DNA from: Candidatus Pelethousia sp.
GTDB taxonomy: Bacteria > Bacillota > Clostridia > Christensenellales > CAG-138
Length of the DNA: 64,000 bases
Assembly: GCA_034933245.1 (NCBI GenBank)
Contig: JAYFNX010000009.1
Coordinates: forward strand, 6,505 to 70,504
Reading direction: 5' to 3'
In this document: piece after piece, positions 58,120 through 64,000 of the stretch
Numbering within the stretch: position 1 is the first letter of the stretch
Layout: every line of letters begins with the position of its first letter
Translations under genes and position numbers: made by a program
The notes under the pieces: generated by a model
Seen by the model: the letters and a program-made list of their open reading frames with translations, nothing else
Told to the model about the DNA's origin: nothing
Database searches by the model: none

Positions 58120-58629
58120 GTGAAAGGCTTTGGCAGTTTTCGCGGCTTTTATAAGTTTGAGAAAGAAGTGAACGGCTTGAGAGAGAGAACCGATCCTGTG
58201 CAGGCCAACGCATTATTTCATCTTTTATTAGAAGCGCAAAGCCTGAAACAGTTTTTAAAAGACAATGAGCAGGAAATGCAATTGCAGTCTTTTTGCGAAT
58301 ATATAACGGAGCTTTGTGAGAAGCAAGGCGAAGTGCCGGAGCATATCATCAAGCGAACGAATCTGGAGCGTTCCTTTGGCCACCAGCTTTTTAAAGGCAC
58401 AAGGAATCCCTCCAGAGATACGGTTTTGCAATTGGCTTTTGGATTTAACGCCGATGTAATCAGAGCGCAAGAACTTTTACGATATGCCGGAATGAGCGCC
58501 TTATATCCAAGGATGAAACGCGATGCCGTTATCATTTATTGCCTGCATAATCGAATATCCATCGTGGAGACGCAAACCATCCTGCACGAGCTGGCGTTAC
58601 CCCTTATCGGTGCAGGTAAAACCAAGTAA
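58120..58629 (+). CDS. XRE-like helix-turn-helix protein of a family common in Clostridia; start codon uncertain
   Basis: ORF track, 169 aa, ...FCEYITELCEKQGEVPEHIIKRTNLERSFGHQLFKGTRNPSRDTVLQLAFGF...LLRYAGMSALYPRMKRDAVIIYCL... Confidence 0.65.
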   Translation: MKGFGSFRGFYKFEKEVNGLRERTDPVQANALFHLLLEAQSLKQFLKDNEQEMQLQSFCEYITELCEKQGEVPEHIIKRTNLERSFGHQLFKGTRNPSRDTVLQLAFGFNADVIRAQELLRYAGMSALYPRMKRDAVIIYCLHNRISIVETQTILHELALPLIGAGKTK

Positions 58630-58820
58630 GCTGTCCTTTTTTCAGTATACGATGGAATAAGCATGGATCGGCAACCGGGTTTTGTTCATGACCCTGCAAA
58701 AGGAGTAAACCGCCTCCTGCGTCTCGTTTTCACGGGATAATTCCTGTTGCCTTATAAAATTCTAGAAAAACGAATTGCAAACTTCGCTTACATATGATAA
58801 AATCACATTCGGCACAATAA

Positions 58821-58907
58821 GCCGGTGTGTTGGAATTGGCAGACGAGGCGGACTCAAAATCCGTTGGTAGCGATACCGTGTGGGTTCGAGTCCCACCACC
58901 GGCACCA
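58821..58907 (+). tRNA. tRNA-Leu (anticodon CAA), intact, with encoded CCA
   Basis: Hand fold: acceptor GCCGGTG/CACCGGC, anticodon loop CT-CAA-AA, long variable arm GGTAGCGATACC, T-arm GTGGG-TTCGAGT-CCCAC, then A-CCA. Confidence 0.9.
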
Positions 58908-59017
58908 AAGTCCTTATGAATCCTGGGTTTGACAGGGTTTCGTAAGGGCTTTTTTGTTCCCCTGAAAGAAGGGCAGCTCCAACGGATTTTCAGGCAAAAA
59001 GAAAGGAATCCGTTGCC

Positions 59018-59974
59018 ATGAAACGAAAGCAAATTGTAGGGAAATCCATCAGTATTCAAGAAGCCTTTGAGCAGTTCCAACGCTTCAACCAAACCAAGAA
59101 TCTATCCCCTGAAACGATACGATATCACGACAACCATTCTAAGCCCTTCTTTGCATTTCTAGAGGATGTTTCCCAGCCTGTTGACTCTATCACCAAGGAG
59201 AAGATTGATGCCTATATCCTGCATTTAAAGGCAAAGGGAACGGTAAACGATACCACCATCAATACCCGGTTAAGAATGGTGCGGGGCTTTCTCTATTACT
59301 GCATGAAGCGGGGGCTTATGCCCACCTTTCAGATAGCACAAATACGGGTTACACAGCCTGTAAAGGAACCCTATACCAAGGCCGAGCTGGCCTTGCTCTT
59401 AAAGAAACCAAATATCAAAAGCTGTTCCTTTGCCAGATACAGGAACTGGGTAATCGTCAATTTTCTGTTGGCTACAGGGTGCCGGGCTTCCACGCTGGTG
59501 AACATTCGGATAGAGGATGTGGATTTAACTGGCGGCATGGTACTCTTCCGTCATATGAAAACGAGAACCCAGCAGATGGTCCCCCTGTCCAAAACCATAA
59601 TCGGTGTACTCGAAGAATACCTCACCTACCGGGATGGACAGCCATCCGAACCCCTGTTTATTTCTGAATATGGCAATGCCTTAAAGGTAGATACGCTGGA
59701 TAGCTGCATCCGGGAATATAATCTTTCCTGTGGGGTAGAAAAAACCTCCCTTCATCTGTTTAGACATACCTACGCAAAGCTTTTTATCACTGCTGGGGGT
59801 GATCCCTTTCGGCTGCAAAAGCTATTAGGCCATAGTGATCTCACCATGACCAAACGGTATGTAGCCCTGTATGCTGAAGATTTAAAGGAAAACTATGATA
59901 AGCTGAATCCCTTAGAACAGTTATCAACCGGGAGAAACGGGAACCGGGTTAAATTGAACGTAGCCCACCGATAG
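59018..59974 (+). CDS. int: tyrosine recombinase/integrase
   Basis: ORF track, 318 aa. SAM-like N-terminal domain. Catalytic residues in context: ATGCRAS (R), HLFRHTYA (H-x-x-R), LGHSD (H), TKRYV (Y). Confidence 0.9.
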   Translation: MKRKQIVGKSISIQEAFEQFQRFNQTKNLSPETIRYHDNHSKPFFAFLEDVSQPVDSITKEKIDAYILHLKAKGTVNDTTINTRLRMVRGFLYYCMKRGLMPTFQIAQIRVTQPVKEPYTKAELALLLKKPNIKSCSFARYRNWVIVNFLLATGCRASTLVNIRIEDVDLTGGMVLFRHMKTRTQQMVPLSKTIIGVLEEYLTYRDGQPSEPLFISEYGNALKVDTLDSCIREYNLSCGVEKTSLHLFRHTYAKLFITAGGDPFRLQKLLGHSDLTMTKRYVALYAEDLKENYDKLNPLEQLSTGRNGNRVKLNVAHR

Positions 59975-60087
59975 AGGTAATAAGGAAACGCTTTTGATAA
60001 ATCTATCAGCCTGAATAGAAAACAGCTTAGAAATGATTTCTGGCCAGCTATAAATCATCTAGGGGTTAGGGCTGTAGAAATGGGTAT

Positions 60088-60109
60088 CCGGAGGTACGGA
60101 GGTATTTTT
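60088..60109. repeat. 22-bp direct repeat copy 1 (CCGGAGGTACGGAGGTATTTTT)
   Basis: Read directly. An identical copy lies at 60300-60321. The repeat itself contains an internal GGAGGTA(C/T) doublet. Confidence 0.9.
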
Positions 60110-60147
60110 ATAGAAAACTTAGAAGATTAACCGTGAGGAATAAATAT

Positions 60148-60182
60148 GTGCTTAGGGCTTAACGCTTCGCTGCCCTAAGCAC
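60148..60182 (+). terminator. 11-bp perfect hairpin followed by a T-rich tract (probable int terminator)
   Basis: GTGCTTAGGGC-(13 nt)-GCCCTAAGCAC, then TTGTTTAAATATT. Confidence 0.55.
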
Positions 60183-60199
60183 TTGTTTAAATATTAAGG

Positions 60200-60255
60200 G
60201 GAGCGGGACTTTTAAAAATTCGTCTTGCGCCGAATTTAGTGAAAAGCCCCACTCC
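60200..60255 (+). other. nested stem structure (outer stem 12 of 14 bp, inner stem 6 bp) of unknown function
   Basis: GGAGCGGGACTTTT ... AAAAGCCCCACTCC encloses AATTCG-tcttgcgc-CGAATT. Confidence 0.5.
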
Positions 60256-60299
60256 AAATCCTGTTTTTATATTTTCCTGAGAAACTATATAGACTGTTA

Positions 60300-60321
60300 C
60301 CGGAGGTACGGAGGTATTTTT
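60300..60321. repeat. 22-bp direct repeat copy 2 (CCGGAGGTACGGAGGTATTTTT)
   Basis: Read directly. Confidence 0.9.
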
Positions 60322-60530
60322 CTTTAAAATATTTAAAAGTATACTATAGATACACAATAGATCATTGTTTTTTATAATCTAAATAATTAATAATAAAAAT
60401 ATGGGGAGAGGTTTGCGGTAAGAAATAGATTGCGCTATCTGGTGGAAAGATAAATGATACTCTCGCGCCGAGTGAGCCTGAAAACAATGGCGCACAAAAA
60501 AACGGATTGATAGTAGGGGCTTCACTTGAA

Positions 60531-60734
60531 ATGCCTTTTGACGATGATGATCCTTTAAATGAATGCAATATTCCCGAAAAGGAAACTCTCAATTATCGCA
60601 ATTATCGCACCACGTATCAGAGAGTATCAAACTTGCCAGATATAACAATCAATGTTGATATGAGCGACTGGTCGGATGAAAAAATGAGGACTTTCTTTAA
60701 GTATGCCTATGGCCAGTTTGAGGGAGAGCAATGA
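60531..60734 (+). CDS. small acidic protein (67 aa from ATG 60531; the ORF track starts at TTG 60507); candidate antitoxin or modulator
   Basis: MPFDDDDPLNECNIPEKETLNYRNYRTTYQRVSNLPDITINVDMSDWSDEKMRTFFKYAYGQFEGEQ. Its stop lies 6 nt before the next ATG. I recognise no family. Confidence 0.5.
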   Translation: MPFDDDDPLNECNIPEKETLNYRNYRTTYQRVSNLPDITINVDMSDWSDEKMRTFFKYAYGQFEGEQ

Positions 60735-60740
60735 TATATT

Positions 60741-61715
60741 ATGACAAAAAGACTTCCAAGCCATAATGTCCCACTTCCTCTTGTCGCTGATGTTGTATGC
60801 TATGTAAACAATAAGGGCTCCTCAAGGATTGAAGAACTAAGGGCTTTCACAAACAAAAGTGACGCATATATCAGGAGCTGTTTGGCAATATGTAAGTTAC
60901 TAGATATTATTCACGAAGATGGGACTGTATCCTCTTTCGTAAACGAATTAGGAAAAACTCCAAATGAAGCCTTAAAACTAAACGTGTTAAGAAAGCTTAT
61001 ACAGGAGTTTGAGCCATTCATTATATTCATCCAGTATCATTTGAATGGTGAATCTCTCGAAGATTCGGCACGCAAAGTATATACAGCCTTCAAATTCGAG
61101 GGAAAAGATTATCTGTTTCTAAAAGACTTGTTTTTGGCATGGGGAATGACCACCGATATTTTTTCACCGGCCCCTGACAGCTTTGTTCTAGAAACGGATA
61201 TCCAAGAAAGAATATCTATTATCAATTCATTTGCCTTTAACCTTGATGATGACATGGCAATAAGGATGTACATTGGAAATAGTCTAGGTGCTGATGTTTT
61301 TTCATCATTATTGCCTGCCGAATTAGCAGAACTAGTAGATGCGTATAAAAAATGTGAGACTGACGCTAGAGGAGCAATCGAGTGTACAGGCCGAGCCTTT
61401 GAGGATTTTCTACGTAGGATTTCTTTATCAGTCAATATTGATGCTAGTGGCAAAAATGGTATTGGGCAAATTGTTAATGCTCTTTACAACCACAAAAATG
61501 CAGCGGGAATATTGGATAATAAAATACATAGCAAACAGTCAAGCATAGGTTCTGCTATTGCGGACATCCGCAATATGGCTGGACATAGCCTAGAGGCTCG
61601 CACATTAGAGAGGTGGGACTTGACATCACATAGCGCCAAAATGTACGCGGAGTTAGTGCTATCAACAATCAAAAGTATAAGTAACTACGTGCAACATTCA
61701 AATCATACTTTTTGA
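60741..61715 (+). CDS. winged-helix-like N-terminal region fused to a C-terminal HEPN (Abi_C/DUF4145-like) domain
   Basis: ORF track, 324 aa. The C-terminal helical domain carries the Rx4H motif in SAIADIRNMAGHSLEA, preceded by ARGAIECTGRAFEDFLRRI. The N-terminus has wHTH-like segments (SSRIEELRAFTNKSDAYIRSCLAICKLLDII). Confidence 0.6.
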   Translation: MTKRLPSHNVPLPLVADVVCYVNNKGSSRIEELRAFTNKSDAYIRSCLAICKLLDIIHEDGTVSSFVNELGKTPNEALKLNVLRKLIQEFEPFIIFIQYHLNGESLEDSARKVYTAFKFEGKDYLFLKDLFLAWGMTTDIFSPAPDSFVLETDIQERISIINSFAFNLDDDMAIRMYIGNSLGADVFSSLLPAELAELVDAYKKCETDARGAIECTGRAFEDFLRRISLSVNIDASGKNGIGQIVNALYNHKNAAGILDNKIHSKQSSIGSAIADIRNMAGHSLEARTLERWDLTSHSAKMYAELVLSTIKSISNYVQHSNHTF

Positions 61716-61722
61716 GTCTGCA

Positions 61723-61746
61723 AGGGGCGGAGAAAACTCCGCCCCT
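61723..61746 (+). terminator. terminator hairpin after the HEPN gene
   Basis: AGGGGCGGAG-aaaa-CTCCGCCCCT, followed by CCCCCTTTACTTTC (a weak U-tail). Confidence 0.55.
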
Positions 61747-61905
61747 CCCCCTTTACTTTCTCCCCTCCCTCCAGTATGATAAAGTTGTGTAACGAAACGA
61801 ACAAACGTTTCTTGCATTGGCAGAAACCCTCATCGCCAACAACTGAAAATCTATTGGAGCGAACCGAAAAAACCTGATAACTACAGGACTTTATGGATGC
61901 GGAGA

Positions 61906-61982
61906 TGGAATTGGCAGACGTGACGGACTCAAAATCCGTTGCCAGCGATGGCGTGTGGGTTCGAGTCCCACCACCGGCACCA
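61906..61982 (+). pseudogene. 5'-truncated, diverged tRNA-Leu(CAA) copy (attR side)
   Basis: Matches the tRNA from the D-arm to CCA, with compensatory changes in the D stem (ATG/CGT versus TTG/CGA), the anticodon stem, and the variable arm (GCCAGCGATGGC versus GGTAGCGATACC). The 5' acceptor strand GCCGGTG is absent. Confidence 0.8.
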
Positions 61983-62066
61983 AACACATATAATCCGAAC
62001 CACTTACGACAGGTTGCACTTGTTGGCGAAGGGTTCGGATTTGTGTTATACTTAGGTTAATTATTT

Positions 62067-62100
62067 AGAGGGCAAGCAATCGGCTTGTCCTCTTATGTTT
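62067..62100 (+). terminator. hairpin plus T-tract downstream of the displaced tRNA 3' end (probable native tRNA-Leu terminator)
   Basis: GAGGGCAAGC-aatcg-GCTTGTCCTC (one G-T pair), followed by TTATGTTTTGTGT. Confidence 0.5.
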
Positions 62101-62152
62101 TGTGTCGTATAATATTAATGGTAATTATTTGTTTTGCAATGGAGGTGCAGGC

Positions 62153-63031
62153 ATGGCTAAGAAGTTTAATGCTTCACAATTCAAGAGCCAAATGCGGCAA
62201 GCTCAAAACAAGGTAAACCAAGAAGTAAGAAAGCTCAACAACGAAATTAACAAATATAATCGAGAAGTTAAATCAGCAGTTAATAAGTATAATCAAGAAG
62301 TGCGCCGCTATAATTCACAGGTTCGTCAAAATCGAGCTCGTATAGAAAGAGAACTCCGTAAGCTATCGTCACAGCCAGCTTTTCGTGTTACAACAACATA
62401 CACAACATCTGTAAGAACCTTAAATACCACTTATGGACAAGTCGCATCGTATTATGATACGTTGGACTATCCAAGCGAATTTGAAGACCGCTTTTATTCT
62501 GACATAGAACAGGAAAACGCCAATAGTCTTGAAACAGCAAACGCGATAGTCAACGACGCCCCCTCAGAAGCACCTGCGGCATCCCTTCAAGACAGCATTA
62601 TTATTGAACAATTGGCACATATTTCTATTGACTTAGATAATCGTTGGCGTGGCGCACTGTTTTCTCTGAACCCATCAAACCCAGATGCGACCAGGCATTT
62701 TTGCACAAGTGCCAGAGAGATATTTACTGAAATATTTAACGCTAAAGCTCCAGATGAATTAGTTTTTTCAAAATATCCGAATTGTGAGAAAACGCCTAAC
62801 GGTAACGCCACACGTCGTTCTAAAATCAATTATTTTCTTGGAAAAAAGGGAATCTCAAACCCTAATGCGGAAAATTTTGTAGAAGAGGACATCACGAATA
62901 TATTGGAATTGTTCCATGTTTTGAGTGATGGTACACATGGAGAAGCAGGCCGATATAGCTTCGATAAGCTCTATGCAGTGAAGAAACGTGTTGAAGATGG
63001 CTTGATTTTCTTATGTAATATTGCCAGCTAA
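62153..63031 (+). CDS. protein with an 11-residue-repeat coiled coil at the N-terminus and an alpha-helical C-terminal domain of unknown function; candidate stand-alone defence or abortive-infection effector
   Basis: ORF 62102..63031, ATG 62153 behind GGAGG. Repeats VNQEVRKLNNE/INKYNREVKSA/VNKYNQEVRRY/NSQVRQNRARI. C-terminal region ...NPDATRHFCTSAREIFTEIF...ATRRSKINYFL...LFHVLSDGTHGEAG... AT-rich. Confidence 0.55.
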   Translation: MAKKFNASQFKSQMRQAQNKVNQEVRKLNNEINKYNREVKSAVNKYNQEVRRYNSQVRQNRARIERELRKLSSQPAFRVTTTYTTSVRTLNTTYGQVASYYDTLDYPSEFEDRFYSDIEQENANSLETANAIVNDAPSEAPAASLQDSIIIEQLAHISIDLDNRWRGALFSLNPSNPDATRHFCTSAREIFTEIFNAKAPDELVFSKYPNCEKTPNGNATRRSKINYFLGKKGISNPNAENFVEEDITNILELFHVLSDGTHGEAGRYSFDKLYAVKKRVEDGLIFLCNIAS

Positions 63032-63058: not shown

Positions 63059-63974
63059 TGTCTAACATCGTGCACAACTAAGATTCATATCTAACAAACA
63101 GGCATAAATTCAAGCACGGTATCCAGCGGTCGTTTGCCGCGTTTTCGGAGCCTCTTTGGGGCCGTTCCGTATTGTAGTGGACAAGCCAAAGATCCAGGTC
63201 TTCCTGGAGATCGTCCACGCTTTCATCGAAGTTTTCACGGAAAGCAATGCGGAAAAACTAATCCAGCACAGTCTTGCGGAAGTGTTCAATGAAGCCGTTG
63301 GTTTTGGGGGATTTGACCTTTGTCCGCCGATGCTCCATGTCGTTGCGGGCAAGGTACAGCTCGAACGGATGGTTCTTCGTTCCGCAGAACTCCCGGCCAT
63401 TATCGGTCAAAACAGCACCGACGGATAGCCCGTGTTCCAGATAAAGAGGAAATACGTCATGATAAACCAGTGCAGCGGCGCACTCCGGCTTTTTGCCGGG
63501 AGGAAGGAAGCCAAAGGCGTAGGAGCCGTACGTATCCGCCCCGGCATGCAGATAAACCTTCCCGACCCCTTTCAAGTTGCCGACAAACATCATGTCCTGG
63601 CACAACAATTCACCGGGCATTGACGATTCCACGTACCGTTCCTTGAAGCAGGGTTGTGTTTTTCGATCTTTGCCACCTGCCCGGCTGTCAGCTCGACACC
63701 TGTTTCTTGATGGCGTTCTTCGACCTTGGCCAGCGATCATAGGCGCTGGCCATTTCGTTACGGATGAGGATCTTTTGTACCATAGGGAATCTGATGGAAG
63801 CTTGCCCTGTCCATGCCCCGGCGGCATGCTTCAGGGATGTTTCCCAGGGTTTCGGCCATTTCCAGCACGCTCAGCCGATGCTTTTCCACCTTCGCAGTCG
63901 GATCTTTTCTACACGCTTTCCTGTCATTTTTATTTCCGCCAACATCAATATAGCATCTGATCTGATGTTAGACT
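63059..63974 (-). mobile_element. decayed IS481-family insertion sequence
   Basis: 10-bp terminal inverted repeats GTCTAACATC (63060-63069) and GATGTTAGAC (63964-63973) bracket a broken DDE transposase gene. Confidence 0.7.
63078..63927 (-). pseudogene. IS481-family DDE transposase pseudogene (frameshifts, internal deletion, in-frame TAG at 63258-63260)
   Basis: ORF 63258..63827 contains ...PGELLCQDMMFVGNLKGVGKVYLHAGADTYGSYAFGFL...TDNGREFCG...KTNGFIEHFRKTVLD*, continuing FFRIAFRENFDESVDDLQEDLDLWLVHYNTERP. The N-terminal HTH (HRLSVLEMAETLGNIPEACRR) is in another frame. Confidence 0.8.
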
Positions 63975-64000
63975 AGCGGCAGCAGAGATAATCTTTGCCG

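Follow-up and report, generated by a model that had tools for sequence, protein, structure and literature searches.

A tRNA-Leu islet of Candidatus Pelethousia carries a probable 5'-truncated copy of a conserved cassette encoding a winged-helix partner and a HEPN-like protein

HEPN RNases recur as effectors in bacterial immunity and in toxin-antitoxin systems, and a point of interest is how each of them is kept silent. The window analysed here, a 64,000-nt stretch of contig JAYFNX010000009.1 of Candidatus Pelethousia sp., contains an islet of ~3.1 kb, which lies between a tRNA-Leu gene and a repeated copy of its 3' part and carries an integrase and one two-gene cassette, whose genes are called A and B (Table 1; all coordinates are window positions). 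Gene B encodes a protein of 324 amino acids (aa) with a HEPN-type Rx4-6H motif and is preceded by a small acidic open reading frame (ORF). A preliminary description of this DNA took the small ORF as a partner protein in its own right. Comparison of homologous loci makes it highly probable that it is instead the 3' end of a partner gene A of ~265 aa, of which the window retains a 5'-truncated copy. The best overall explanation, to which a probability of about 60% is given, is a truncated A-B cassette in which B is a HEPN RNase effector and A its regulator.

The small ORF begins at either TTG 60507 or ATG 60531, runs to 60734 and ends 6 nt before B. The ATG form encodes 67 aa with an isoelectric point of 4.2 and a net charge of -7, and a plausible AGGGG Shine-Dalgarno sequence lies 11 nt upstream of its start. 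Up to this point the ORF listing and the raw sequence agree with the preliminary description in position, acidity and spacing. Scans of the small ORF against Pfam, NCBIfam, PHROGs and PADLOC gave no match, and a protein search with its 67 aa returned three short proteins only, the long partners being missed by the word index. At the homologous loci, genes of 262-272 aa adjoin B homologs that are 35-81% identical to the window protein, and partners of the closest relatives (77-81% identity) measure 265-269 aa. The closest relative of all is locus L009, whose B is 81% identical to that of the window. Homology to the L009 partner begins at 60402, upstream of the small-ORF start, and crosses an in-frame stop codon at 60426-60428, from which the frame is open (60429 onwards). 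At the DNA level, homology to L009 starts at ~60436 with 78% identity, and an unrelated AT-rich spacer, free of partner-gene homology over 59975-60401, lies upstream. More distant partners match the window over their last ~34 aa only, and the partner N-terminal domain (~170 aa) was not found anywhere in the 64-kb window.

To place this arrangement among its relatives, a census was made with hidden Markov models (HMMs) for the partner N-domain, the partner C-terminal motif (C motif) and B on six-frame translations of 68 fetched loci (given here as L numbers). Clustering at >= 95% identity yielded 37 lineages with a complete B, 32 of them with at least 850 nt of upstream sequence. A complete partner in one ORF was present in 26 of these 32 lineages, from Firmicutes and cyanobacteria. 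Both partner parts, split or partly matched, were found in three lineages, two of them with divergent haloarchaeal partners and one (L040) with a nonsense mutation in the linker. Neither part was detected in two, where B is preceded by a 228-aa divergent ORF in a metagenome-assembled genome (MAG) of Phycisphaerales (L035) and by a helicase in Haladaptatus (L062). The C motif alone was found in a single lineage, that of the window. Because partner homology extends above the start codon of the small ORF and through an in-frame stop, and because the C-motif-only state occurs in one lineage of 32, the pairing of B with a small acidic protein is best regarded as an artefact of 5' truncation, and this part of the preliminary description is replaced by a conserved partner of ~265 aa with its own tandem winged helix.

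It could still be argued that the native system consists of a small acidic antitoxin-like protein, with the 67-aa ORF complete, and a winged-helix-HEPN toxin, as the 6-nt spacing, the acidic product and ORFs of 66-69 aa beside homologs in two other places might suggest. Yet both of these other short ORFs have their own explanation, since in L040/L041 a full-length partner is split in frame by a nonsense codon and in L042 the gene is cut by the contig end. With full-length partners in the closest relatives and homology running upstream of the start codon, such a native small protein is very improbable. In L040/L041 (1002-1757) an in-frame TAA in the acidic linker separates ORFs of 158 aa and 66 aa with B intact, and in L064 (234-1021) the partner is split into 86 and 172 aa, although L063 and L065 carry the same B protein next to an unbroken partner. 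At L040/L041 and L064 the piece bearing the C motif still adjoins B.

Full-length A is built of a tandem winged-helix N-domain, a linker that is disordered and acidic, and, at its C-terminus, a conserved motif of ~32 aa. Its family comprises 51 clusters, all annotated as 'hypothetical' and none with a Pfam domain; full-length partners gave no Pfam match, and the two that were tested against PADLOC gave none there either. In the AlphaFold2 model of A, the N-domain (residues 5-178) is predicted with a local distance difference test score (pLDDT) above 90, the linker (residues 179-239) is disordered with a pLDDT of ~30, and the C-terminal element (residues 240-264) forms an extended segment and a helix with a pLDDT of ~87. 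Across the family, median values for the linker are 62 aa in length and -7 in net charge. The C motif, [IV]T[IV]N[IV]DMSDWSxEKIKxFFKYAYG, ranks with the best-conserved parts of A and is recognisable in Firmicutes, cyanobacteria and haloarchaea. Of these parts, the 67-aa ORF of the window retains a portion of the linker together with the C motif. In 26 of the 32 informative lineages A and B form a tight, co-oriented pair, with A either overlapping B or ending 2-9 nt ahead of it, which is the gene arrangement of a type II-like toxin-antitoxin module.

The N-domain of A appears to be paralogous to that of B. Their AlphaFold2 models have an identical order of secondary-structure elements, and hhalign aligns the two domains in register (residues 29-106 with 27-105; E-values of 3.7e-4 and 9e-4, at low probabilities of 36% and 22%). 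Moreover, the partner HMM matches B N-termini co-linearly in 58 of 219 cases, as against 3 of 219 shuffled controls, where positions were scattered. In Foldseek searches the N-domain of A matched the FokI recognition domain (probability 0.97) and single winged-helix regulators. The haloarchaeal partners at L036, L037 and L039 (Halovenus, Halorubrum) are called as ORFs of just 113-160 aa, follow the same plan and abut B with a 0-nt gap; their common features are the segment GxYxRGxxGxxTR, a linker that is very acidic and the tail 'VTVDIEVSSxDWESEEV'. Their presence points to a spread of the cassette that was ancient or crossed domains.

Protein B belongs to a family that, judged by its sequences, is coherent, conserved and uncharacterised. 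Searches with B found 74 close clusters in a collection of 5.8 billion proteins, and a profile search of 1.84 billion representatives recovered 358 clusters (50% identity) at E <= 1e-3. Among the family matches listed, most are of ~300-350 aa with near-full-length alignment, and the shorter ones seem to be fragmentary. Nothing meaningful came from searches of PDB sequences, whether the query was the single protein or the family profile. In an alignment of 40 sequences, down to 30% identity, E221, R225, R277, N278, M279, G281, H282 and W292 are invariant. Among 214 family representatives H282 and W292 are present in all, E221 in 213 and R277 in 209; an Rx4-6H motif is likewise found in 209 of the 214, with a spacing of 4 in 178, 5 in 29 and 6 in 2. 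The segment ARGAIECTGRAFEDFLRRI (residues 209-227), which had been proposed as a conserved first helix, is indeed conserved across homologs, as is ADIRNMAGHS, and contains the near-invariant E221. Known HEPN families are approached below threshold only. Sub-threshold matches in the 40 members were to Abi_C, DUF4145, HEPN_Apea, HEPN_MAE_28990 and Hypoth_Ymh, the last of which is counted among HEPN families (Anantharaman 2013). Two of these members match Abi_C (best E 0.14) and one HEPN_MAE_28990 (E 0.051), below the gathering threshold, and B of the window matches neither Abi_C (PF14355) nor HEPN_MAE_28990 (PF18737) at E <= 10. Most of the precomputed Pfam matches of the protein collection carry the flag 'weak' or 'faint', and two loci, L042 and L068, have unflagged ones. 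Some source databases name B members 'MAE-28990/MAE-18760-like HEPN', from weak PF14355 matches.

The AlphaFold2 model of B, made from the family alignment, is confident (pLDDT 89.8) and contains two domains. Its N-terminus is predicted to be a tandem winged helix, in line with the one or two winged-helix modules supposed in the preliminary description, and in Foldseek searches this half matched MntR/DtxR, the RuvB winged helix, F93, RPC62 and BpuJI/FokI-type recognition domains. A search against viral predicted structures gave nothing significant, with one FokI-like winged-helix match only. In the C-terminal domain long helices span residues 209-230, 241-249, 264-281 and 296-319, and the R/H motif ends the helix 264-281. 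When the two-domain query was compared with the PDB, Csm6 was ranked first, and matches were also obtained to the TM0613 HEPN protein (1o3u; probability 0.96, template-modelling score 0.60 over its whole length) and to the HEPN toxin LsoA (probability 0.80), each at E > 0.1. The motif evidence is strong and the fold evidence consistent, if formally weak, and it is quite likely that the C-terminal domain has a HEPN fold, in line with the earlier assignment from the Rx4-6H motif.

Strong conservation of the motif also bears on the proposal that A and B form no toxin system at all, being paralogous winged-helix DNA/RNA-binding regulators or mobile-DNA maintenance factors in which the HEPN-like domain serves dimerisation or ligand binding. 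Tandem winged helices of FokI/MarR/Fur type in both proteins, the location of several loci amid ordinary genes and the existence of non-catalytic HEPN domains (PMC3710099) would fit such a role. Nevertheless, the near-absolute conservation of the catalytic-type R and H together with E221 is typical of active HEPN RNases, and the patchy, horizontally mobile distribution in bacteria and archaea, with no fixed neighbours, is also at odds with it; this proposal is held to be quite improbable. HEPN RNases have general precedent as effectors in abortive infection and toxin-antitoxin systems (PMC3710099), and by this analogy we lean towards the cassette being an RNase-based toxin-antitoxin or abortive-infection-like conflict module.

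No named system was recognised in the preliminary description, and neither the window proteins nor four further HEPN homologs nor two full-length partners matched PADLOC-DB v2.0.0 at E <= 1. Several known systems resemble the cassette in part. The AbiJ / MAE_18760 / MAE_28990-type HEPN proteins likewise combine a sensor-like domain at the N-terminus with an Rx4-6H HEPN domain at the C-terminus and are patchily distributed on mobile DNA, but the B family falls below the Abi_C and HEPN_MAE_28990 thresholds and has a dedicated, apparently paralogous partner gene next to it. HEPN-MNT (type VII) pairs share with A-B the two tightly spaced genes, the horizontal mobility and the HEPN Rx4-6H effector; however, A is a tandem winged helix with a disordered tail, with no nucleotidyltransferase domain and no Pfam match, and B is about three times larger than the HEPN protein of such pairs and carries a winged-helix module. 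As its partner is not a minimal nucleotidyltransferase, A-B was rejected as a HEPN-MNT system. RnlA-RnlB and LsoA-LsoB also consist of a multi-domain HEPN-type RNase toxin and a separate protein inhibitor, and LsoA is among the structural matches of B, whereas PDB sequence searches detected no sequence relationship to B and the partner architecture is unrelated; an RnlAB assignment was excluded by the features of the partner. The N-terminal domains of RnlA/LsoA are not known to be tandem winged helices. In Csm6/Csx1 (CARF-HEPN), the best-ranked structural matches, a sensor and a HEPN domain are likewise combined in one chain, but B contains neither a CARF nor a Rossmann domain and is not found in a CRISPR context, and the fold match has E > 0.1.

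Retron type IX offers a regulatory parallel, as its HEPN RNase is held inhibited by a separate nucleic-acid-binding helix-turn-helix protein until triggered (PMC7736814; bioRxiv 10.64898/2026.07.14.737667). There, too, a HEPN nuclease is paired with a separate winged-helix/KH-helix-turn-helix protein, but the gene order is reversed relative to A-B, and its HEPN domain does not have the canonical H, which the B family keeps in all 214 representatives. No reverse transcriptase (RT)-family Pfam match was found among the called neighbours of the 22 loci with gene tables; with no adjacent RT at these loci and no Rfam family apart from tRNA at the window locus, A-B was rejected as a retron of this type. 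In its proposed working A-B comes closest to the AbiJ/MAE_18760-type proteins and to HEPN toxin-antitoxin pairs. It is inferred to be a HEPN-based conflict module of two genes, whose partner protein has an architecture not described before.

In the mechanism that we propose, B would act as a dimer-dependent HEPN RNase effector and A as its regulator. The winged helices of B would bind a nucleic-acid or protein cue, and the C motif of A would be the most likely contact with B. The acidic linker of A may shield basic nucleic-acid-binding surfaces of B, and its winged-helix module may provide autoregulation, sensing or heterodimerisation with the paralogous module of B; the cassette would move horizontally as a two-gene unit. 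As the small acidic protein is a truncated tail, the earlier idea of restraint by an acidic protein can be kept only as a proposal about the linker and C motif of A. The window lineage, which is seen in several metagenomes, has an intact B in the absence of the A N-domain, and since its host lives with this combination, the A N-domain must be dispensable for surviving B. Should the C motif make the contact with B, the surviving 67-aa tail could still neutralise B and would then represent a minimal antitoxin, a possibility to which somewhat less than even odds are given. Alternatively, B could be silent until triggered, in which case the window copy is probably a disabled, harmless remnant. The open remnant, its ATG with the AGGGG box and a promoter-like site found at 60351-60378 by a promoter scan are compatible with both readings.

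Under a further reading, the whole window copy would be inert, that is, a broken cassette that was captured or kept, in which B is harmless, needing activation or its partner, and the ORFs are leftovers at a young pseudogene stage. The 5' truncation, at whose junction lies an in-frame stop, the C-motif-only configuration seen in one lineage of 32, the decaying copies in other lineages (L022, L031, L057, L040, L064) and the four or five copies of ~100% identity, which leave no time for selection, all speak for it. Nevertheless, B has its full length and all residues that are invariant in the family, what remains of A is exactly its most conserved segment, and this segment has an ATG, a plausible Shine-Dalgarno sequence and the promoter-like site. 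An inert remnant is held to be somewhat unlikely. At the other end lies a more ambitious proposal, that A-B is an unrecognised anti-phage or toxin-antitoxin system of Firmicutes, cyanobacteria and haloarchaea in which a paralogous winged-helix protein gates B via an acidic, nucleic-acid-mimicking disordered linker and a short C-terminal docking motif, the window truncation marking the minimal inhibitory element (linker remnant and motif) and the lost module being an infection sensor or autoregulator; this proposal is held to be unlikely.

Several observations weigh against a truncated cassette with B as HEPN RNase effector and A as regulator. All Foldseek E-values exceed 0.05, so the call of the HEPN fold rests on ranking, probability scores and the motif, and B has no match at E <= 1 in Pfam, NCBIfam, PHROGs and PADLOC. 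An open frame in the remnant is to be expected after a recent truncation and provides no evidence of selection, the islet copies being ~100% identical. Contact between A and B through the C motif is purely conjectural. Many cassette contexts are ordinary metabolic neighbourhoods, and the split partners (L040, L064) together with the helicase-linked L062 mean that the A-B pairing is not absolute.

Turning to the element that carries the cassette, the locus is a tRNA-integrated islet with a tyrosine integrase adjoining the tRNA, a direct repeat of the tRNA 3' part and low-GC cargo, so the earlier placement of the tight gene pair inside an integrative element is borne out by the integrase, the tRNA-Leu and the 79-nt repeat. 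GC content is ~38% in the cargo versus ~52-58% in the flanking DNA (host ~55%). The second repeat copy has no matching 5' acceptor strand and was not scored as a tRNA by ARAGORN or Rfam. When linkage was checked across the other cassette loci, the integrase was linked with A-B solely in the window lineage. An Rfam scan of 58600-62300 detected the tRNA only and no retron or toxin-antitoxin RNA.

Table 1. Features of the islet and its cassette (window coordinates; a dot marks a feature with no strand).
Feature	Coordinates	Strand	Basis or remark
tRNA-Leu(CAA), integration target and left boundary of the islet	58821-58907	+	ARAGORN; Rfam tRNA 50.9 bits
Direct repeat copy 1, attachment site (att)-like, within tRNA-Leu	58831-58909	+	79 nt, 92% identical to 61906-61984
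Tyrosine integrase, 318 aa	59018-59974	+	PF00589 E 6.8e-29 and SAM-like N-terminal domains
AT-rich non-coding spacer	59975-60401	.	GC 34-36%; stands in place of the 5' ~520 nt of the partner gene
Highly probable 3' remnant of ~265-aa partner gene A	60402-60734	+	tblastn 55% over 110 aa, E 8e-32, to L009 partner residues 163-269
Conserved C-terminal motif of partner, LPDITINVDMSDWSDEKMRTFFKYAYGQFEG	60630-60722	+	C-motif HMM E 3.4e-21
Gene B, 324 aa	60741-61715	+	ORF listing; real gene by homology
Predicted N-terminal tandem winged-helix module, B residues ~1-160	60741-61220	+	AlphaFold2 pLDDT 84-95; helices and short hairpins
C-terminal HEPN-like helical domain, B residues ~168-324 and stop codon	61242-61715	+	AlphaFold2, Foldseek
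Rx4H motif R277-N-M-A-G-H282	61569-61586	+	Within ADIRNMAGHS, residues 274-283
GC-rich hairpin GGGGCGGAG-AAAA-CTCCGCCCC, terminator-like, directly 3' of the B stop codon	61724-61745	+	Read from sequence
Direct repeat copy 2, attR-like, tRNA-Leu 3' fragment	61906-61984	+	79 nt, 92% identity with copy 1

Within the spacer a 30-nt direct repeat (CCGGAGGTACGGAGGTATTTTT...) occurs at 60088-60117 and 60300-60329, with 90% identity between copies 212 nt apart, and an 18-nt inverted repeat is found at 60141-60189, between the integrase and the truncated partner; the spacer repeats may be arm-type sites of the integrase or regulatory sites. The hairpin downstream of B falls within the DNA homology to L009, which extends to ~61746, and was not called by a terminator scan. 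The islet of the window lineage was recovered from four other contigs, all copies being ~100% identical. L043 is a Logan contig of 3054 bp from an independent assembly that corresponds to window 58880-61933 and ends inside both tRNA repeats. It was considered as an excised circle and rejected, as it has no circular junction and the contig breaks within the two repeats; its ends probably reflect an assembly break at the repeats and not an excised form.

Immediately beyond the attR-like repeat, a protein of 309 aa (62102-63031, plus strand) has a coiled-coil N-terminal half and a PF18165 pP_pnuc_1 match (E 5e-40), a family described as 'predicted pPIWI-associating nuclease', and matches PADLOC Aga_Nuclease at 1.6e-8. 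Its gene is possibly a second one of defence type at this tRNA-Leu hotspot, and no Argonaute/pPIWI gene is visible between it and the window end. From the pP_pnuc_1 gene to the window end (63080-64000, minus strand), the ORF translations resemble pieces of a broken transposase (for example 63258-63827).

Across the homologous loci the A-B pair is the sole conserved unit, and its neighbours vary between lineages. They include McrBC (L001), a HEPN-MNT pair (L040), ParE with a serine recombinase (L066), AAA_15 ATPases with an insertion sequence element (L008), a relaxase with NikA (L009), DUF5677 with Mu-like transposition genes (L002-L005), a Y1 transposase (L068) and ordinary metabolic genes (L006, L063). 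Hosts are found among Clostridia, Bacilli, Nostoc, Limnothrix, a Phycisphaerales MAG and Halobacteria. Full cassettes are present in the isolate-derived genomes of Tissierella carlieri, Sporolactobacillus shoreicorticis LMG 29111, Anaerocolumna jejuensis DSM 15929, Faecalicatena contorta JCM 6483, Paenibacillus senegalimassiliensis SIT18 and Nostoc sp. KVJ20. Decaying copies comprise L022, with frameshifts in both genes, together with L031, L057, L040 and L064. No relatives of the cassette were found in IMG/VR or among GenBank phages, and among plasmids there was one match, on a haloarchaeal megaplasmid; the cassette is therefore not typically phage- or plasmid-borne. At L062 (Haladaptatus sp. 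QDMS2 plasmid NZ_CP119793.1, 5036-7969), a distant B homolog with an Rx5H motif and 24.5% identity is preceded by an annotated 631-aa DEAD/DEAH-box helicase in place of the usual partner, with no detectable C motif, which gives the same HEPN protein an alternative partner. Variable neighbours and patchy spread are how a small, horizontally mobile unit that is complete in itself behaves, for example a toxin-antitoxin or minimal defence system.

The B family thus occurs in both bacteria and archaea, none of its members has been characterised, and the Pfam, NCBIfam, PHROGs and PADLOC models fail to detect it. The design of A is unusual in joining an apparently paralogous DNA-binding-like module to a linker that is acidic and disordered and to a short tail that is conserved, and the window copy, as a natural deletion mutant, bears on whether the 67-aa tail alone neutralises B. 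For annotation, small ORFs beside toxin-like genes should not be taken as antitoxins by default, and homologous loci should be compared. The window copy itself may be non-functional; the cassette that underlies it is conserved across domains of life and is experimentally tractable.

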